A DNA stretch of 9,750 nt, from IMG/VR virus record IMGVR_UViG_2579778631_000016; one strand, 5' to 3'. This DNA comes from a virus. Its lineage: Duplodnaviria > Heunggongvirae > Uroviricota > Caudoviricetes. The translations under genes and the position numbers were made by a program. The notes beneath the pieces were generated by a model. It saw only the letters and a program-made list of their open reading frames with translations, had not been told where the DNA came from and did not search any database. Positions 313-9,750 of this stretch are shown here, one piece after another (the stretch's first letter is position 1; each line of letters begins with the position of its first letter).

Positions 313-392
313 CGTCGGGTCCTTCCTGGAATTATGGCCCGTTACGGGGCGGCGACCTCGCGCGTTTTCACTATTTATGAAAATTTTTCGGG
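313..392 (+). other. lambda-type cohesive-end site, copy A (cosQ-like + cosN)
   Basis: The + strand reads cgtcgggtccttcctggaattatggcccgttacg / GGGCGGCGACCT / cgcgcgttttcactatttatgaaaatttttcgg. The 12-mer at 347-358 and its flanks match the lambda genome left end and concatemer junction as I recall them (...cgacgggtcctttccggtgatccgacaggttacg|GGGCGGCGACCTCGCGGGTTTTCGCTATTTATGAAAATTTTCCGG) at nearly every position. Confidence 0.7.
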
Positions 393-996: not shown

Positions 997-1057
997 AATG
1001 TTACCTTAACTGCATGGTTAAATATTAATCAAGTGGTGGTGGTGTCACCTTCACGGA

Positions 1058-1133
1058 AAAACGTCATAAATAGCGAAAACCCGCGAGGTCGCCGCCCCGT
1101 AACGGGTCCATATGCCGGAAAGGACCCGTAAAA
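1058..1133 (-). other. lambda-type cohesive-end site, copy B (cosQ-like + cosN + one R3-like element)
   Basis: The minus strand reads tttacgggtcctttccggcatatggacccgttacg / GGGCGGCGACCT / cgcgggttttcgctatttatgacgtttttccgtgaagg; the cohesive-end 12-mer is at 1086-1097. This matches the recalled lambda cosQ/cosN almost exactly, and ACGTTTTTCCG resembles the lambda R-site core CGTTTCC. Confidence 0.7.
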
Positions 1134-1152
1134 AAAGCCGGATTTCTCCGGC
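1130..1152 (-). terminator. rho-independent terminator ending the capsid operon
   Basis: Hairpin gccgga-tttc-tccggc (1137-1152) is followed on the minus strand by a 7-nt U tract (A tract 1130-1136 on +), 7 nt after the stop of the 137-aa gene. Confidence 0.6.
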
Positions 1153-1158
1153 CTTGTC

Positions 1159-1572
1159 TCAGATGGTTTTCAGTATGCGCTCGATGTCGCCATCATCGCC
1201 CGGGTTTCTGCCGTCGTATGCCATGCCAGCTGAAACGGCTTGCGGGCTGTGCATGTCCATAAAGTTTTCAAAGGCTGCGGTAAGCTCCGGCGCAACCTTC
1301 TGGCGTTCCTGCTCTATGGTCATGCTAAGGATGCTTTTAGCCGTACCAACATCGATACAAGGCACGTTTGCCATTGCACGTAACAGCGGCTGATAGTCGT
1401 TATGCTCATGAAGCGCCATAATCGCATCAGCGCGCGGCTTGTCCTGCTCTTCCAGTTTGTTGAGTTGATATACGGCCTCGTAGGTTGATAAACCTCTGTC
1501 AGCCATTGCCCGCGCTTCGGCTTTAAATTTACTCGCCAGCGGTAGCGTCATGATGCTTTCATTCGTTGCCAT
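1159..1572 (-). CDS. hypothetical head-module protein, 137 aa
   Basis: ATG at 1570-1572 with an AGGGGGAA Shine-Dalgarno, 12 nt after the stop of the gpD-like gene and followed by a terminator. Function unknown; its position suggests an accessory head, scaffold or size-determination protein. Confidence 0.6.
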   Translation of the reverse strand: MATNESIMTLPLASKFKAEARAMADRGLSTYEAVYQLNKLEEQDKPRADAIMALHEHNDYQPLLRAMANVPCIDVGTAKSILSMTIEQERQKVAPELTAAFENFMDMHSPQAVSAGMAYDGRNPGDDGDIERILKTI

Positions 1573-1584
1573 CGTTCCCCCTGC

Positions 1585-1920
1585 TTATCGGGCCAGCGGC
1601 TGAACGGATACGCCAGAACCCGCAAAGGCGGCGCATTTTTTCGCATCGGTGTCGACGCTCTCGGGCCAGTTCACGGCGGCGATATTAAAGATCCCCGTCT
1701 TGTAGCACTGTGCTGATTTCTGCTTTGACGTGTCCACGGGGTACGAAGTCAGATAAACAGCCTTTCCGGACGCCTGACCATCCCACGGCTTAAACTCGCC
1801 ATTGTCCGCCAGCATCAGCGGGGTAAATTCCTGAATGACGCCAGCATCAGCGGCAAAATGTACCAGCGTCGTGGATACCTGCTGACTGCCTGCAAATAAC
1901 TCAATGTATGGAGTGTTCAT
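1585..1920 (-). CDS. head decoration protein, lambda gpD-like, 111 aa
   Basis: TPLMLADNGEFKPWDG and YKTGIFNIAAVNWPES...KKCAAFAGSGVSV match lambda gpD (TPLMLDTSSRKLVAWDG; YKSGTFRYEDVLWPEA...KKRTAFAGTAISIV). GGGGGA Shine-Dalgarno; directly follows the capsid gene. Confidence 0.8.
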   Translation of the reverse strand: MNTPYIELFAGSQQVSTTLVHFAADAGVIQEFTPLMLADNGEFKPWDGQASGKAVYLTSYPVDTSKQKSAQCYKTGIFNIAAVNWPESVDTDAKKCAAFAGSGVSVQPLAR

Positions 1921-1931
1921 AGAATCCCCCG

Positions 1932-2987
1932 TTAACCAATTTTGACGGTAACAAATTTGCGAATGTCTGCCGGCACCGGCTGCGGTGCGCTGTGCGTCTG
2001 CACGTACTCAATCGCCGGATCGCCGTCCTCAATCCAGTTTTTCGGGTAGTACATGTTTTGCGTTGCGCCCGTTCTTACCGCTTCCTGATCCATAATCGCA
2101 CCATAAGCAACCAGCCCTTTATTGTTGGTGTTGCCCAAGACCAGCAAATCAGGCTCAAGGAAATGTTTTTCGGTGCCGTCGCTGTCGGCGTATTTGCCGG
2201 AATAGACGATAAGGGCAATATCGCCCAGATAGCCTTTAAAGCTCACCACTTCGCCCAGGTTTTTACAGGCCAGTTCTGCGGCGGATTCTGAACCACGGGA
2301 AAGATCGTACAGTTCGCGGAATTTTTTAAAGCTGCGTAACGTGCGCCATACCTCAGCGCCCATAATCATGACGTTTGCGGGGCAATTGCCCTGATCCGCA
2401 TAAAGCTCGATATCATAGATTGGATCGTGGGTTTCTTTGTCCTGCTCGGACCATTTACGGCCTTTGGCCTGCTCTATGATGTTGTTTTCCGGCATCTTCC
2501 AGTCGATTTCATAGCGTTCTATGCCTTCGCCCTCAATGATGTTTTTTCCGGTCGTTACCGCATTTACCGCCAGCCATTCAACACGCGCTTTAATAGCGTT
2601 TACCTGGCGGCGCATGTTGCCAGTAATCAGGCGCATACGGCGATAGGTTGGGTCGTTAAGCTGTGCCGGATCTTCTCCAGCCATGCGCATGATGGTTTTT
2701 GTTGGATCGATTTCGTGCTTTGGCTTCATGTAGCCAGGTTTAATCGTGCTGGTTTCGTACCCTTTATCGCGCTGTACCTGGCTACCAACCATAGGCGAGC
2801 AAAACGCTGACATAGTGACTTCTTCGGTGTCCAGGTTATCCAGCATGATGTTTTGGGTGTTGAATGTCGCTACTTTCTGGAAAAACAGCGTGGTAAACAG
2901 CGGACTAAATTTAAATTCCGCAATATCCCCGCGATTCAGGTACGCAAAAAGCTGGTGAGTGTTAAGTGCCGTTGCTTTGCCTGCCAT
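1932..2987 (-). CDS. major capsid protein, lambda gpE family, 351 aa
   Basis: Several blocks match lambda gpE: EFKFSPLFTTLFF / KFKFDPLFLRLFF; PGYMKPKHEIDP / PGYVKPKHEVNP; EDPAQLNDPTYRRMRLITGNMR / EDPQNLADPAYRRRRIIMQNMR; GDIALIVYSGKY / GDVAIVVYSGQY; YPKNWIEDGDPA / YPKNWVTTGDPA. Start overlaps the upstream stop (TAATG). Confidence 0.9.
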   Translation of the reverse strand: MAGKATALNTHQLFAYLNRGDIAEFKFSPLFTTLFFQKVATFNTQNIMLDNLDTEEVTMSAFCSPMVGSQVQRDKGYETSTIKPGYMKPKHEIDPTKTIMRMAGEDPAQLNDPTYRRMRLITGNMRRQVNAIKARVEWLAVNAVTTGKNIIEGEGIERYEIDWKMPENNIIEQAKGRKWSEQDKETHDPIYDIELYADQGNCPANVMIMGAEVWRTLRSFKKFRELYDLSRGSESAAELACKNLGEVVSFKGYLGDIALIVYSGKYADSDGTEKHFLEPDLLVLGNTNNKGLVAYGAIMDQEAVRTGATQNMYYPKNWIEDGDPAIEYVQTHSAPQPVPADIRKFVTVKIG

Positions 2988-3193
2988 TATTCACCCCCAT
3001 AATTTTTATGCATCCCAAGCGCCGCAAGTAAATAAGAGCGTACAAGTGAACCTATCGACGGCTCCGGCGTCATCAGCGGATCCAGTCCAGCCGCCACGCC
3101 AGCCTCATAGTTTTTTTTGTGGCGCTGCTTGAGCACCTCCACGATTTCGGGGCTTATGTACACCGAAACACCGCCTTTTTTCTCTTCAGCCAT
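2987..3193 (-). CDS. hypothetical protein, 68 aa, first gene of capsid operon
   Basis: ATG at 3191-3193 with a GAGGAA Shine-Dalgarno; its stop overlaps the capsid ATG, indicating translational coupling. No family recognised. Confidence 0.55.
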   Translation of the reverse strand: MAEEKKGGVSVYISPEIVEVLKQRHKKNYEAGVAAGLDPLMTPEPSIGSLVRSYLLAALGMHKNYGGE

Positions 3194-3249
3194 AGTAAGA
3201 AATTCCTCTTCGACTTAAAAAATCATAACTGGATGTTCATCCAGCTCTG

Positions 3250-3277
3250 ATTATAATCATGATTGCATTTTGTGCAA
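3250..3277 (-). promoter_or_regulatory. sigma70-like promoter for the capsid operon (TTGCAC, 16 bp spacer, TATAAT)
   Basis: On the minus strand: -35 TTGCAC (3272-3277), 16-nt spacer, -10 TATAAT (3250-3255), about 55 nt upstream of the ATG at 3193. The -10 lies inside the perfect palindrome GATTATAATC and is flanked by TTGCA/TGCAA dyads. Confidence 0.45.
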
Positions 3278-3357
3278 TGATATTGAGTTGTGTTGCAAAT
3301 TGTGAAATGATTATCCCGATCATGTGTGTCAGTGCACCAAAAAGCCTCATATGCAAA

Positions 3358-3608: not shown

Positions 3609-4031
3609 TTAAAACGGTATGTTATCCCCGTACGGATCATCATTCCCCGCCTGTTGTTTTGCCCTGTTCAGCGCGTCAGTAGCCTGCCCCTGTTGACCTT
3701 TTTTGCTGCCCGGTCGCGCCGTTCTGGCACTGATTACACTGTCTGCGATAACCTGCCAGCCCTGCCGCGTTTCGCCGTTCTGGCCTGTCCACTGGCTCAC
3801 CTGCATATTACCCGCCACGCTCAGGAGTTCGCCTTTGTGGTGTTTTGCCAGTGCGTCGGCCTGTCTGCCAAACGCCAGGACAGATAACCACATCGTCGCC
3901 GTTCCGTCATCTGCCTGGCTGCATGGCAGGGGAACCGCCATACTCGCCATCGCCATTTGTGTCCCTTTGCTGGTGGTCTTTAACTGCGGGTCAGCCACCA
4001 GCCGCCCGCAAGCCGCTATCTGTGCTGTCAT
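3609..4031 (-). CDS. ssb: single-stranded DNA-binding protein (SSB), 140 aa
   Basis: OB-fold-like core (WLSVLAFGRQADALAKHHKGELLSVAGNMQVSQWTGQNGETRQGWQVIA) and an acidic C-terminal tail ending ...DDPYGDNIPF, as in E. coli SSB (...DFDDDIPF). Start overlaps the upstream stop (ATGA). Confidence 0.8.
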   Translation of the reverse strand: MTAQIAACGRLVADPQLKTTSKGTQMAMASMAVPLPCSQADDGTATMWLSVLAFGRQADALAKHHKGELLSVAGNMQVSQWTGQNGETRQGWQVIADSVISARTARPGSKKGQQGQATDALNRAKQQAGNDDPYGDNIPF

Positions 4032-4573: not shown

Positions 4574-6322
4574 TTATAAAAACGCGTCGCAATCGTCTGT
4601 TGTTATTGCGTTAGTCTGCGTTACTCCCTTAACTTTCCGCGTAATATATTCATGTCCGTAAACTTTCGCGGCTGGCTTCATAGCCTTGCCAAAGTCATTT
4701 ACGTTTAGCGGTTTGCTCCTGCCTGCGTATGCCATAAACGCCAGATAGACGCGGTAAAGGCTGTTCCTGGTCGTGTACTTCACTGAATCGCCACCGCCCC
4801 CCATCATCAGGCCGCGCGCTTCCTCCAGAAAATTCAGGAACTGGCAAAACTCAATAACCGGATCCGTTTGCTGCTTTATCGCCAGTGCTTCATCACCGTC
4901 ACGCTGTTCAATGAGTAAAGCCCGTGCCTTTTCAGGGGCGGAAAAGTTCGCCAGTAATCGGCGGATAATCACAGGGATTTCAGCCGCAATCTTTTCCGGT
5001 AGCTCCCTGTCTTTGTCGGCCTCACTGACGATATTGTCGAAACGGAAAATCACGCGACGACGTGCCACACCTCCGGCCCGTTCGGTGAATATCATCGGGT
5101 TGTTGTTGGTCGCCAGCACCACCGCCCTGATTACCGCCGTGAAACGCTTTTCATATTTCGGGTTAACTTCCACGGGGTCGCCGCCTGTGATTTTCTTGAT
5201 GCCCGTTCCTTCGCCTGTATATTTCGGCTGGTCAGCCAGGACGATAAGACGACTCCCGACAACCTGCGCACGTCCACCAGCATCATCAAGCGATGTCATT
5301 TCAGCGCTTACCGTGTTCTGTTTCCCTGCCAGAAGGCTGGCTATGTGTGTGAATGTACTTTTACCGCTCCCGCCGTCTCCGGTGGCCTCAATAAACATCT
5401 GCCAGTCGTACCGGTTCGCCATAATCATGTACAGCGCGGCACATATACGCATCATCTTGCTCGGGTCTTTTCCGGCTGCGTGCTCAAGCCATTTATGAAA
5501 GTTTGGCGCGTTATCGCGGATGTTCTCCCCGGGTGCTGGTGGCGTGTACTCAATGCCGTTGTGCGTGGTGATCCAGTTCTCCGGCGTGTGCGGGGAAAAT
5601 TCCCCCGTTTTCAGGTCAAGCGCACCATTGGCGAACGGCAGCAAATCGCCGGACGGCTCGCCCATTGGTTCGGCAATAACTTTTAACGCTTCCACGGCGT
5701 TATTGATTACGCGCTTGCTGAAAGTGGCCCTGTGCTCTGAATAGATCGCCACCATTTCGCGGCTCAGCTCCATTGTGCTGACCGGACACCATACCCCGCC
5801 GCGCCATACGTGAACGATTTCACTTTCAGGATGCACACAAACGCCATCAAAGCGCTCGGCAAGCAGCTGCGCGCGCTCACTGTCTGCCATTTGTGCCAGT
5901 TGCGTATTTTTCTGCTCCGGCATGGTAAGCCCTGCGGCAATATTTTCACGCTCAGCATTCAGATAGCGCCGCCAGTTTTCACACTTCTGGGCGTGCATTC
6001 CTTCGGGGTAAAAATTTGCGTCCTGAATATCTGCCGCCGCCAGCTTCTGACCAATCTTTTTGGTCTCCACCAAATCCAGTTCTCCGGCCTGGTACAGCCT
6101 TACGCGTTTTTTTCCATCAGGAACAATTTGCAGTGCATCAAGTTCGGCAAGCTGATTTGGCCCAAGCCACACAGGAGGCACATTATCGCCGGATGCGGGG
6201 CCGTCCTGCTCCTGCCACTGTTTTGCATGTGCCCACGCATCACTACCCGCGAAAATAATCACCTCTGTGTCTTTGTGTTTTATTCCGCGTGGCTGTTTTT
6301 TTACGTTCGGTGCCAGTTTCAT
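4574..6322 (-). CDS. P4-family primase / SF3 helicase replication initiator, 582 aa
   Basis: Walker A motif GDGGSGKST, a downstream LIVLADQP Walker B-like segment and a C-terminal region typical of phage/plasmid primase P4-family (D5_N-like) proteins. Start overlaps the stop of the upstream small ORF (ATGA). Confidence 0.9.
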   Translation of the reverse strand: MKLAPNVKKQPRGIKHKDTEVIIFAGSDAWAHAKQWQEQDGPASGDNVPPVWLGPNQLAELDALQIVPDGKKRVRLYQAGELDLVETKKIGQKLAAADIQDANFYPEGMHAQKCENWRRYLNAERENIAAGLTMPEQKNTQLAQMADSERAQLLAERFDGVCVHPESEIVHVWRGGVWCPVSTMELSREMVAIYSEHRATFSKRVINNAVEALKVIAEPMGEPSGDLLPFANGALDLKTGEFSPHTPENWITTHNGIEYTPPAPGENIRDNAPNFHKWLEHAAGKDPSKMMRICAALYMIMANRYDWQMFIEATGDGGSGKSTFTHIASLLAGKQNTVSAEMTSLDDAGGRAQVVGSRLIVLADQPKYTGEGTGIKKITGGDPVEVNPKYEKRFTAVIRAVVLATNNNPMIFTERAGGVARRRVIFRFDNIVSEADKDRELPEKIAAEIPVIIRRLLANFSAPEKARALLIEQRDGDEALAIKQQTDPVIEFCQFLNFLEEARGLMMGGGGDSVKYTTRNSLYRVYLAFMAYAGRSKPLNVNDFGKAMKPAAKVYGHEYITRKVKGVTQTNAITTDDCDAFL

Positions 6323-6623: not shown

Positions 6624-6851
6624 TTATTCTCCGGTATGGGGCGAGTTATTATTCTCGTGAATTGCCATCACTGTATTTAATTCATTAATAACAGGCGTTA
6701 ATAGCGTACGCACGGCAGAAAACATCATTGAATCAGATTCATCGCCACTTTCCGGCACATCAATTAACTTAAGTAGTAATGCGTCCATTTCCTTTGCGCG
6801 GATTAATGCGTTTTCAGAATGAACAAGAACATCAAAGGGTATTTTATGCAT
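6624..6851 (-). CDS. hypothetical protein, 75 aa
   Basis: ATG at 6849-6851 overlaps the stop of the upstream 67-aa ORF (ATGCATAA); acidic, no family recognised. Confidence 0.55.
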   Translation of the reverse strand: MHKIPFDVLVHSENALIRAKEMDALLLKLIDVPESGDESDSMMFSAVRTLLTPVINELNTVMAIHENNNSPHTGE

Positions 6852-7047
6852 GACTCACCCCCTGGCGAATACGGGCAGCGAATACCATCACGCAGCCATC
6901 AGGAGATTGCTGACGCGCTTCCTGTTCGCTGGTGGCCTCAATGGTAATCACGCGCGGTTGTGCCGTGCTCAGGGCGATAAAACGCCAGATGTATTTATTC
7001 AGGTTGTGCGAGTCCCGCCCTTTCGGGTGTGTGGTATGATTTAACAT
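6844..7047 (-). CDS. hypothetical protein, 67 aa, first gene of leftward replication operon
   Basis: Internal ATG at 7045-7047 of the long 6844..7791(-) ORF, preceded by GAGGTAG at good spacing. The remainder of the 315-aa ORF is judged spurious. Confidence 0.5.
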   Translation of the reverse strand: MLNHTTHPKGRDSHNLNKYIWRFIALSTAQPRVITIEATSEQEARQQSPDGCVMVFAARIRQGVSHA

Positions 7048-7141
7048 AGCTACCTCGATACTCTTTCTATCGTTGGTGGTTAGAAGCCCGTTGGTGTTGG
7101 TAGCACCTGCGGGCTTTGTCTTTTCATCGATTACCTCAACA

Positions 7142-7225
7142 AAGGTGTCAGCCACTATACTAGTAACAGGTGTCAGCCACGTCAATAGTGTTTTTCCATT
7201 TTCTTGTGTGTATACTGTCAGCCAC
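7142..7225 (+). promoter_or_regulatory. three direct repeats of TGTCAGCCAC in the divergent promoter region (putative operator)
   Basis: aaaggtgtcagccac (7142-7155), acaggtgtcagccac (7166-7180) and tactgtcagccac (7213-7225). TATACT hexamers at 7156-7161 and 7211-7216 abut the repeats. Located just upstream of the RHH gene start at 7247. Confidence 0.5.
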
Positions 7226-7246
7226 CTAATAACAAGGAAATCAGAT

Positions 7247-7426
7247 ATGGCAACGAAAGCAGTTAATGGAAAATCCAAAAAACTTGAGGCACGAGTCCCC
7301 CATGCAATAGCTGACGCTGTAGAAAATTTAAAGGAAGAAGGCGAAAGCACTGGGCAATTTATCGTTTCGGCACTTGAAGGCGAGATCAAACGCCGCCAGC
7401 GCCGCAAGGCCAAAGAACCAGAGTAA
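7247..7426 (+). CDS. ribbon-helix-helix (Arc/CopG-like) DNA-binding protein, 59 aa
   Basis: ATG at 7247 with an AAGGAAA Shine-Dalgarno. KKLEARVPHAIADAVENLKEEGESTGQFIVSALEGEI fits a beta-strand / helix / loop / helix RHH pattern, and the basic tail is RRQRRKAK. The long N-terminal extension in the ORF track was rejected. Confidence 0.65.
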   Translation: MATKAVNGKSKKLEARVPHAIADAVENLKEEGESTGQFIVSALEGEIKRRQRRKAKEPE

Positions 7427-7483
7427 TCACCATCAGCGCCGTGGTGTAAGGTATTACGGCGCATTGCTATGCAGGACAACACA

Positions 7484-7657
7484 ATGACCGATAAAGAATT
7501 GACCAAAACATTATCACCGGCACGGAAAAGACGGCGCAGAAAGATAGAGCATGAATCAGAAAGATTCGCGCCATGTGCTTTTGCCCTTGAGCAATTCCTT
7601 AAAGAGTACAGGGAAAAGCGCTCATTGCAGGTATGGCAACGAACTGAACCAGACTGA
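7484..7657 (+). CDS. hypothetical small basic protein, about 57 aa
   Basis: Second ATG (7484) has an AGGA Shine-Dalgarno whereas the first (7469) does not. Contains ARKRRRRK. Followed by a terminator. Start is uncertain. Confidence 0.4.
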   Translation: MTDKELTKTLSPARKRRRRKIEHESERFAPCAFALEQFLKEYREKRSLQVWQRTEPD

Positions 7658-7752
7658 TTGCATTGCCCACCAGCCTGATAGCGGCTATCATCCCCGTGCT
7701 TATGTTTGGGATCATATACACATAAGGCGCAGCGGGTTAATTGTTCAGAAAG

Positions 7753-7779
7753 GCGGCTCCATATCGGGGCCGCTTTTTT
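7753..7779 (+). terminator. rho-independent terminator
   Basis: gcggctcc-atatc-ggggccgc followed by TTTTTT (7774-7779); lies between the convergent RHH operon and alpA. Confidence 0.55.
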
Positions 7780-7805
7780 CGTGTTTGTCATATCTGTGAT
7801 ACCCG

Positions 7806-8012
7806 TTAAGCAGCCGTTCCGCGTGCTTCCTGTTCGCGTTCTTTCTGCCAGGCCAACACATCATCCTCATACCATCCGCGACGGCGTAAACCAACGCGAA
7901 AACCCTGCGGAAATTCTCCGGCGTTGATCATGCTTTGCAGCGTGCTGTCTGCCTTGATGTGGATAATTTTTTTTACTTCCTGGCGAAAGATAATTTTTCT
8001 GATTGCTTCCAT
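7806..8012 (-). CDS. alpA: AlpA-family phage transcriptional regulator / excisionase-like protein, 68 aa
   Basis: KADSTLQSMINAGEFPQGFRVGLRRRGWYEDDVLAWQ matches the AlpA-family HTH pattern (...TIYRLIxxGxFPKPxKLGxRxxxWxExEVxxW). AAGGTAA Shine-Dalgarno; sits beside a P4-type integrase as in CP4-57. Confidence 0.8.
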   Translation of the reverse strand: MEAIRKIIFRQEVKKIIHIKADSTLQSMINAGEFPQGFRVGLRRRGWYEDDVLAWQKEREQEARGTAA

Positions 8013-8508: not shown

Positions 8509-9750
8509 CTACACGGCTCGGATACCCCTTTTACCACTGGCGAGGGTTACGCCCGTCGCCGCAGCCTCGACAAATTCGCCCCACCAGCGCATCAGCACGA
8601 TGCGTTTTTCTATGTAGTTGCTCCGGTTGTATGCCCGTCTAACTTCGTTGGTGTCGACGTGGGCAAGTGCCGCCTCTATTACGTCCGGCTCGAATCCTTC
8701 CTCGTTCGCTGCTGTGCTGAATATGGCGCGTAATCCATGAGACACCAGCACGCCAGCGAATCCCATACGCCGCAATGCTGCGTTAGCTGTCTGGCTGTTC
8801 ATCGGCTGCTGTGGGTCTTTCAGACTTGGGAAAACGTAATTGCGGTGGTGGCTGATTGGTTTCATGGCCTCCAGCACCGCCATAGCCTGACCGGAAAGCG
8901 GGATAACGTGATCCCTGCGCATCTTCATGCGTCCGGCAGGTATCGTCCATTGCTTCGCGTCCAGGTTGATTTCATCCCACCGCGTTGATGACGCTTCGGC
9001 GGGACGGGTTACGGTCAGTAACTGCCATTCAATCAGTAATCTGGTCTGCCGTTCTGTTGCCGATACTGATAAAGCCTGCATAAGCTCCGGCAGCTGTTCG
9101 GGGCGGATTGTTGGCATATGTTTTTTTACAGGTGAGGGAAACGCCTTACGCACATTCATAGCCGGATTGGCATCAATCAGCCCACTGTTGGCGGCGTAAT
9201 CCATTACCTCATTAACGCGCTGTAAAACCCGCTTGAGTGTTTCCAGGTTGCCGCGCTCCTTGATGGGGGTAAGCACTTCAACGAACCTTCGGGCGGTGAG
9301 GGTATCTATTGGCGTGTTGCCGATGAACGGGAATACATATTTATCCAGCGAACGCCAGATGTCTTTAATCGTGTTGGGGGCCAGATTCTGGCTGATTTTC
9401 ACCTGGTACCATGCCGCCGCCACATTTTCGAACGTGTTCCCTTGTCTTCGGGCCTCTGTCTCTCTTTTTTGCCTCTCGTGGTCCTGCGGGTCAGTTCCGG
9501 CACTGATTAACGTCCTGTACTCGCTACGGCGTTTTCTGGCATCAGCCAGGGAAACATCTTCAAGCGATCCAAAACTCAGCAATATTCTTTTTTTGTCCGA
9601 TGGTCGGTAGTAGGAAAATCTCCAGAGTTTTGATCCAGACGGTTTGACCAGGAGAAAAAGCCCTCCGCCGTCCTGCAGGGTGTACTCCTTTTGCGCTGGT
9701 CTGGCTGCTTTGATCTGCACTGTGGTTAATGGGTGTGTTTTTCTCGCCAT
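8509..9750 (-). CDS. int: tyrosine integrase, P4 / CP4-57 IntA type, 413 aa
   Basis: N-terminus MARKTHPLTTVQIKAARP...GGGLFLLVKPSGSKLWRFSYYRP is typical of P4-like integrases. The C-terminal catalytic region has HGLRAIFST and AYNRSNYIEKR, the tyrosine motif. ATG sits at the window edge (9748-9750). Confidence 0.95.
   Translation of the reverse strand: MARKTHPLTTVQIKAARPAQKEYTLQDGGGLFLLVKPSGSKLWRFSYYRPSDKKRILLSFGSLEDVSLADARKRRSEYRTLISAGTDPQDHERQKRETEARRQGNTFENVAAAWYQVKISQNLAPNTIKDIWRSLDKYVFPFIGNTPIDTLTARRFVEVLTPIKERGNLETLKRVLQRVNEVMDYAANSGLIDANPAMNVRKAFPSPVKKHMPTIRPEQLPELMQALSVSATERQTRLLIEWQLLTVTRPAEASSTRWDEINLDAKQWTIPAGRMKMRRDHVIPLSGQAMAVLEAMKPISHHRNYVFPSLKDPQQPMNSQTANAALRRMGFAGVLVSHGLRAIFSTAANEEGFEPDVIEAALAHVDTNEVRRAYNRSNYIEKRIVLMRWWGEFVEAAATGVTLASGKRGIRAV

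Follow-up and report, generated by a model that had tools for sequence, protein, structure and literature searches.

EcCICFT073-type PICIs (phage-inducible chromosomal islands) serve as the reference PICIs among Gram-negative bacteria, and their engineering into delivery vehicles is under way. According to the supplement of Fillol-Salom et al. 2018, EcCICFT073 encodes c1498 (68 residues), c1499 (a 351-residue capsid protein), c1500 (111 residues) and c1501 (137 residues), and its RppA protein (c1503) has 144 residues. The coat and decoration homologues of these islands have stood without a phenotype or an explanation since 2018, and the two genes flanking them, c1498 and c1501, have had no published function and are named "hypothetical protein" in RefSeq complete genomes. 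In phage lambda, the annotation gives the scaffold, gpNu3, as a product read in frame from the C-terminal part of gene C. We analysed a 9,750-nucleotide stretch of the IMG/VR virus record IMGVR_UViG_2579778631_000016 (the window below means this whole stretch), in which an initial annotation, made from the sequence alone, had pointed to a 137-residue and a 68-residue protein on either side of capsid and decoration genes as candidate scaffold, size-determination or helper-interference factors.

The window proved to be a phage satellite, namely a PICI of the EcCICFT073 type. Like EcCICFT073, it carries in order an integrase, an AlpA-like regulator, a primase, a single-stranded DNA-binding protein (SSB), a 68-residue protein, a 351-residue capsid protein, a 111-residue decoration protein, a 137-residue protein, a cos site and a 144-residue RppA. 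Because gene sizes and gene order equal those of EcCICFT073, the 68-residue and 137-residue open reading frames (ORFs) are the orthologues of c1498 and c1501. The window differs from EcCICFT073 as a sequence variant, and it is about 94% identical to the related copy in Nissle 1917 over most of the island. On the homology described below, c1501 is most aptly classed in the gpC/Nu3-tail family, as a stand-alone member carried by a satellite. Earlier publications already covered the element and the cassette, as well as the finding that the cassette can be dispensed with in the laboratory; what is new is the assignment of c1501 as a putative scaffold and a tentative pair of regulator and operator.

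Homology of the 137-residue protein to the lambda gpC/Nu3 tail

Pfam and NCBIfam searches with the 137-residue protein returned nothing significant even at E values up to 10, and searches of PDB sequences, with the single sequence and with a profile, gave chance-level hits only. The empty Pfam result is explained by the fact that lambda gpC beyond its S49 protease domain consists of 142 residues for which there is no gathering-level Pfam model. Against PHROG, the protein matched phrog_1999, a family of unknown function, over its full length (E 6e-65), and it also matched (E 5.5e-8) positions 495-567 of the 583-position profile phrog_53, which represents head maturation proteases of the lambda gpC type. 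When 50,697 phage genomes were searched by tblastn, the sole hit was the extreme C-terminus of gpC/Nu3 of Escherichia phage PhiR12_2_star. BLASTP aligned residues 49-134 of the island protein with residues 416-498 of the 501-residue gpC of this phage at 33% identity (E 4e-9), with the two C-termini in register. An hhalign comparison of the family alignment (A1) with a small Nu3 alignment (A4) gave a probability of 96.9% and an E value of 1.6e-10 and spanned residues 119-189 of lambda Nu3, while BLASTP against lambda Nu3 itself reached only E 0.05. The initial annotation had recognised no family for this protein; these four lines of comparison (phrog_53, tblastn, BLASTP and hhalign) place it among homologues of the C-terminal scaffold tail of gpC/Nu3. 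Judged from its sequence, the 137-residue protein is very probably a Nu3 homologue.

Of 1.84 billion representative proteins searched exhaustively with HMMER, only 12 scored E<1e-3. Two distant HMMER matches, P0067 and P0069, carry repeated RIMxL..EA.GRE.LA..LA..PGMT.EQAK.LL modules followed by FEQFMQQHSPAPV, and we read them as putatively Nu3-like from the repeated modules and the string FEQFMQQHSP. A further protein, P0070 (141 residues), which another island type encodes at the corresponding position behind D, contains two such modules, its internal repeat being matched in none of 2000 shuffles. P0070 scored 101 against P0067, compared with 35.7 +/- 6.3, and its score against the N-terminal 44 residues of the 137-residue protein was likewise equalled by 0 of 2000 shuffles. 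The internal duplication of the 137-residue protein was not significant alone (174 of 2000 shuffles) and is supported only through the bridging P0070. The protein can be divided into module 1 (about residues 5-37), module 2 (about residues 48-83), FENFMDMHSPQAVSAG at residues 100-115 and an invariant tail, DIERILKTI, and it contains the motif FxxFMxxHSPxAV. In its sequence, the protein therefore looks like a miniature, protease-less Nu3 that matches the non-protease tail of about 140 residues common to gpC and gpNu3.

The 137-residue gene is the fastest-evolving gene of the cassette, with 40% and 30% identity to two other cassette types, for which the corresponding values of E are 83% and 62%. 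Its tail is the part that is conserved best. Between types whose E proteins share at least 83% identity, the tail RILKTI does not change, and the type with an E of 62% identity has another one (…EKLLLSVK); this pattern covers three cassette types only and is hence weak. The AlphaFold2 model of the protein, built from a shallow alignment, is all-helical with a mean predicted local distance difference test score (pLDDT) of 53.7 and a predicted template modelling score (pTM) of 0.30, too poor for a fold search. The scaffold gpNu3 is a flexible, largely helical or disordered protein, and the low-confidence helical model would fit such a flexible scaffold, being compatible with it but not diagnostic. 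Among the roles proposed in the initial annotation, that of a scaffold best agrees with the homology to the gpC/Nu3 tail. That annotation had also held that clear homology to ordinary lambda head-completion proteins would speak against its proposals; homology to a lambda head protein was indeed found, but Nu3 belongs to head assembly and not to head completion.

Operon layout, distribution and host island

The features of the capsid operon and of its immediate surroundings, in positions of the window, are the following.

1054..1132, minus strand: lambda-type cos site (cos1), directly downstream of the operon (alignment to the joined lambda ends)
1131..1155, minus strand: intrinsic terminator closing the operon (hairpin and U7)
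1159..1572, minus strand: 137-residue ORF, putative stand-alone Nu3-type scaffolding protein, c1501 orthologue (PHROG, BLASTP and hhalign homology)
1585..1920, minus strand: lambda gpD-like head decoration protein, 111 residues, c1500 orthologue (Pfam HDPD, BLASTP)
1932..2987, minus strand: lambda gpE-like major capsid protein, 351 residues, c1499 orthologue (Pfam Phage_cap_E, identity to lambda E)
2987..3193, minus strand: first gene of the operon, 68 residues, c1498 orthologue, possible ribbon-helix-helix DNA-binding protein
3250..3308, minus strand: conserved promoter/operator region of the capsid operon (cross-genus alignment, pattern search)

The four genes form one operon that runs from promoter to terminator in the order 68-residue gene, gpE-like gene, gpD-like gene and 137-residue gene, followed by the terminator and cos. 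As initially annotated, the 68-residue ORF leads the operon and the 137-residue ORF ends it, so that the two bracket E and D, with the promoter region and the terminator at the limits. The positions given for both ORFs and their tight coupling were also confirmed: base 2987 is common to the TAA stop codon of the 68-residue gene and the ATG of the gpE-like gene (a TAATG overlap), and 12 nt lie between D and the 137-residue ORF, E and D being separated by 11 nt. Ribosome-binding sites of the GGGGG type had been ascribed to both flanking ORFs; they were found 5' of the 137-residue ORF, and of E and D, but the Shine-Dalgarno sequence of the 68-residue ORF is AAGAGGAA at 3203-3210. The terminator stands directly 3' of the stop codon of the 137-residue gene (folding free energy, dG, -19.1 kcal/mol, z -4.1), and 0 of 200 shuffles folded equally well.

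The gpE-like protein, a match to Pfam Phage_cap_E at E 1.2e-49, shows 43% identity to lambda E along its whole length, and the gpD-like protein matched Pfam HDPD (E 5.6e-18) and, by BLASTP, lambda D (E 2e-13). Among 50,697 phage records searched, the best match of the island gpE-like protein showed 46-47% identity, and by this measure of sequence divergence the island E is an old, separate lineage. The four-gene block, at a length coverage of at least 80%, was present in 590 of 5,426 complete E. coli genomes (11%, about one in nine). The order of the 68-residue gene, E, D and a gene for 134 to 141 residues was constant across islands that differ in their replicase, either a D5 primase or an AAA_25 helicase, and in their Rpp type. 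The ratio of nonsynonymous to synonymous substitution rates (dN/dS) against orthologues was 0.23 for the 137-residue gene and 0.21-0.38 for the 68-residue gene; for E and D it was 0.08-0.15 when close orthologues were compared and reached as much as 0.28 with the type that diverges most. Both flanking ORFs are real genes that have been maintained under purifying selection.

Two further observations concern the history of the block. The 68-residue protein is 69% identical to that of the Nissle 1917 copy (L002 6115-6321), while the adjacent E, D and 137-residue proteins are 94-97% identical, and this difference suggests a recombination breakpoint at the junction between the 68-residue gene and E. 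At L012 8600-14200 (Salmonella) and L011 8600-14200 (Edwardsiella), the block consists of the 68-residue gene, E and D without the scaffold gene, with cos next in L012. Remnants of lambda-like prophages follow the block in both cases: those in L012 comprise a Nu1-like gene, a phage-type E that is truncated at its N-terminus, and FI, FII, Z, U and V, and those in L011 a portal fragment, C, D and E. Either cointegration of an island with a prophage or a deletion may have given rise to this arrangement.

In the rest of the window, the minus strand carries, in order, the integrase (8509-9750), the AlpA-like regulator (7806-8012), a D5-type primase (4574-6322) and SSB (3609-4031), ahead of the four-gene operon. 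Downstream of the operon lie cos, a 144-residue helix-turn-helix protein with weak similarity to Nu1 (562-996) and a second, inverted copy of cos (316-391). Thus, the features of a cos-type PICI were found together: an integrase, an AlpA-type regulator, a primase-replicase, a helper-type cos, an Rpp gene and a size of about 11 kb, with neither tail nor lysis genes. No portal, S49 maturation protease, head-tail connector, or small or large terminase family was found among the ORFs of the window with Pfam and PHROG. The exact cohesive-end 12-mer of cos1, GGGCGGCGACCT, is at 1086-1097. The two lambda-type cos copies, at 316-391 (plus strand) and 1054-1132 (minus strand), form an inverted pair with 78-nt arms that are 82% complementary; both contain the exact cohesive-end 12-mer, and the RppA-like gene (562-996) stands between them. 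A "cos1" site is mentioned in the Mol Cell 2019 paper, and the inverted pair is therefore probably known. The 315-residue ORF at 6844-7791 (minus strand) is probably not a gene. In related annotated islands, this region is taken up by several small genes, Icd-like ones and hypothetical ones, along with a divergent gene of the YlcI/YnfO family that matches 7073-7426 of the window on the plus strand.

The 68-residue protein and the promoter region

The 68-residue family was found only in islands of Enterobacterales (E. coli, Salmonella, Edwardsiella and Pluralibacter), and all of its members are annotated as hypothetical. Unlike E, D and Nu3, the protein had no hit in the 50,697 phage genomes. 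Pfam and NCBIfam gave nothing significant (E up to 10), and the PDB sequence and profile searches produced chance-level hits only. The AlphaFold2 model (pLDDT 70) predicts an extended segment at residues 8-13 and helices at 15-34 and 47-58, a strand-helix-helix arrangement, for which Foldseek found no match in PDB or BFVD at E<=0.001. Two orthologues matched BrnA (E 0.017) and RHH_1 (E 0.15), both of them Pfam families of the ribbon-helix-helix type, below threshold and exactly at the predicted strand and first helix; residues Y12, I13, S14 and P15 of the predicted strand are invariant in the family, and the GLDPL..PS loop is strongly conserved. Compared with known ribbon-helix-helix (RHH) regulators (Arc/CopG/MetJ, the N-terminal domain of TraM and the BrnA antitoxin), all scores were below significance, and the 68-residue protein is set apart by a conserved inter-helix loop of 13 residues. 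We also considered a lambda gpW-like protein, which has the same length, but there was no similarity.

Upstream of the 68-residue gene, the non-coding region 3250-3308 is conserved in alignments of E. coli, Salmonella, Edwardsiella and Pluralibacter islands. It contains a perfect TATAAT (3250-3255) and a perfect palindrome, ATTGCA-N5-TGCAAT (3262-3278), of which a second copy with 2 mismatches lies 30 bp from the first (3292-3308); a promoter-like site was predicted at 3306-3277. The 68-residue protein would regulate its own operon by binding these two candidate operators over the promoter. The proposal that it is an RHH-type DNA-binding regulator is a tentative one, somewhat short of an even chance. 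The initial annotation had considered this protein as a capsid factor, too, but on weak evidence (the AlphaFold2 model and the sub-threshold BrnA and RHH_1 matches) it looks more like a small RHH regulator.

Between the promoter and the start of the 68-residue gene, a terminator-like leader hairpin with a U-run (3227-3246, minus strand; CUGGAU..AUCCAG, dG -13 kcal/mol, z -3.7) was observed. The Salmonella and Pluralibacter loci have it, and the L006 type of E. coli island, which L008 resembles by alignment alone, lacks it. Control of the operon by the helper through antitermination at this hairpin was considered and not adopted, because the hairpin is not conserved in all cassette types. In some islands, a PerC-family regulator gene lies between SSB and the 68-residue gene (for example L003 6446-6694 in E. 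coli AST198), and in one protein, P0062, a PerC N-terminus is fused to the C-terminal half of the 68-residue protein.

Role of the cassette and comparison with known systems

In internal scaffolds, it is the C-terminal end that binds the coat protein. On the model of Nu3 and scaffolds like it, the 137-residue protein would attach with its C-terminal part to the inside of the gpE-like coat that the island itself encodes, chaperone the assembly of the shell and afterwards depart or be broken down, with the helper's protease gpC as the most likely agent of the breakdown. Because the island has neither a protease nor a portal, helper gpC and gpB (the portal) would be needed for any island shell. 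The 137-residue protein, E and D would make up a self-contained shell-forming module. The conserved tail in a fast-evolving protein, the way in which this tail tracks the identity of E, and the divergence of the island E together suggest that the 137-residue protein is the cognate chaperone of the island coat. By this analogy, it probably serves the island's coat protein as a scaffold, and the overall explanation, a Nu3-type scaffold in an island shell set whose operon is regulated by a 68-residue RHH protein, is the one that we favour as reasonably likely.

Several observations weigh against this explanation. Deletion of c1499 or c1500 alters neither transfer nor interference with lambda, and the DNA packaged with a lambda helper is phage-sized (PMC6092414). 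When c1498-c1501 are replaced by cas9, phi80-mediated transfer of the island still occurs (PMC10530653). Unlike that of Nu3, the 137-residue gene lies outside any protease gene and follows D where Nu3 precedes it, and some NCBI records label its product "phage head-tail connector protein". The scaffold gene is absent from the Salmonella and Edwardsiella cassettes, where D is directly followed by the terminator and cos, and it encodes only 84 residues in the Pluralibacter island; thus, E and D can persist without it. In none of the transfer routes examined to date does the cassette have a role. The helper interference proposed in the initial annotation found no support for lambda and phi80, since only c1503 (RppA) blocked lambda when the post-origin genes of EcCICFT073 were expressed singly (PMC6739421). 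Size determination, the other role proposed there, was not seen with the lambda helper either, c1501 being intact in the marked island whose packaged DNA was phage-sized. The published "c1501::tetA" island had been suspected of carrying a disrupted scaffold gene, but its primers place tetA immediately after the intact c1501 stop codon.

These results also bear on other explanations of the 137-residue protein. It might be a competing scaffold that redirects capsid size, like CpmB of Staphylococcus aureus pathogenicity island 1 (SaPI1), in which the coat-binding tail of the helper Nu3 on a shorter body would act on helper gpE or on mixed shells and lead to small capsids and interference. An analogous mechanism has been described for SaPIs (PMC6893505; 10.1101/2022.09.08.507074), the C-terminal region is common to this protein and helper gpC/Nu3, with a total length of 137 residues against 201 in Nu3, and the island, at about 11 kb, is smaller than lambda with its roughly 48 kb. 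However, all DNA packaged with the lambda helper was phage-sized although c1501 was intact (PMC6092414), c1503 alone among the singly expressed post-ori genes cut lambda plaques (PMC6739421), and the island brings a very divergent coat of its own, which shares no more than 47% identity with the E of any phage and speaks for a cognate pair, not for an attack on the coat of the helper; we consider a competing scaffold quite unlikely. A decaying, functionless 3' remnant of a captured gpC/Nu3 gene would fit the observations that the protein corresponds only to the gpC tail, that it is absent from some islands, that a 93-residue variant with an internal deletion exists (P0027) and that the cassette has no laboratory phenotype. 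Yet the gene has its own ATG and a GGGGG ribosome-binding site 12 nt after D, its dN/dS is 0.23, its length stays at 134-141 residues across three types that are only 30-40% identical, and its N-terminus and C-terminal tail are invariant. The order E-D-scaffold differs, moreover, from the phage order C/Nu3-D-E and is therefore not a simple leftover, and decay seems very improbable. The name "phage head-tail connector protein", given to several members of the cluster, would make it an adaptor; no connector family (gp6/gpW/gpFII-like) of Pfam, NCBIfam or PHROG was matched at E up to 10, RefSeq complete genomes say hypothetical, the only significant similarities are to gpC/Nu3 tails, and a connector is hardly credible.

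Two further alternatives concern the cassette as a whole and its first gene. The cassette could be a decoy, a defence cargo that poisons the capsids of non-helper lambdoid phages by co-assembly. It is dispensable for transfer and lies in an "adaptable module" (PMC10530653), it is under purifying selection and kept in 11% of complete E. coli genomes, and satellites carry interference genes in the same region (PMC6739421), but none of the four cassette proteins had a PADLOC match, lambda plaques were unaffected by deletion of c1499 or c1500 and by single-gene expression, and an anti-phage function appears improbable. The 68-residue protein, for its part, may be a small assembly partner of the coat, that is, a chaperone, nucleator or size factor coupled to E for that reason. 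The conserved TAATG overlap with E, the persistence of the 68-residue gene, E and D as a trio without the scaffold gene, the strong conservation of the GLDPL..PS loop and the sub-threshold level of the RHH matches all fit such a partner. Nevertheless, the protein shows no similarity to known capsid factors and no hit among the phage genomes, operator-like palindromes stand directly upstream of its gene, and its best fold and profile hints are all RHH, which leaves the partner role rather doubtful.

With c1501 as a putative Nu3-type scaffold, the island would carry a coherent set of coat, decoration and scaffold in place of two stray head genes. The island proteins also provide stand-alone relatives of the scaffold tail of gpC/Nu3, which should be useful for defining the coat-binding motif. 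Whether the three proteins assemble shells, whose portal and protease they would use and which helper is involved are questions that can now be tested.

The lambda gpNu3/gpC tail and the 137-residue protein share homology over the last 75-85 residues, and over the whole length through the P0070 bridge. They have in common a repeated helical module, an FxxFMxxHSPxAV-like motif and an acidic-hydrophobic C-terminal tail. The non-protease tail of lambda gpC has 142 residues against 137 in the island protein, and both are encoded beside gpE-type and gpD-type genes. Whereas lambda Nu3 lies in frame in protease gene C, upstream of D and E, the island gene stands alone with its own ribosome-binding site, in the order E-D-scaffold, on a satellite without protease or portal, and its product is only about 21-33% identical to phage proteins.

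Among the satellites, SaPI1 with CpmB and SaPIbov5 with Ccm resemble the island in carrying homologues of helper head-assembly proteins in the packaging module. CpmB and Ccm redirect capsid size, whereas no small capsids were seen for EcCICFT073 with lambda; the island has coat, decoration and scaffold homologues together, and these have no sequence relationship to CpmB or Ccm. Capsid-forming PICIs (cf-PICIs), such as EcCIEDL933, are similar to the island in that they have their own major capsid protein and need the helper for other parts of the virion. However, cf-PICIs also encode a portal, a protease, head-tail connectors and a terminase, none of which is in this window, and the island is thus not a cf-PICI. 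It is conceivable, though unlikely, that the four genes form a portable shell kit and that with the right natural helper, which would be neither lambda nor phi80 in laboratory strains, the island uses its coat, decoration and scaffold proteins to build shells of its own around a portal and protease stolen from the helper, perhaps with a smaller T number that fits one or two 11-kb genomes. Classical PICIs steal whole capsids and capsid-forming PICIs only tails, and if this reading were true, a very common E. coli island would stand between the two as an evolutionary intermediate.

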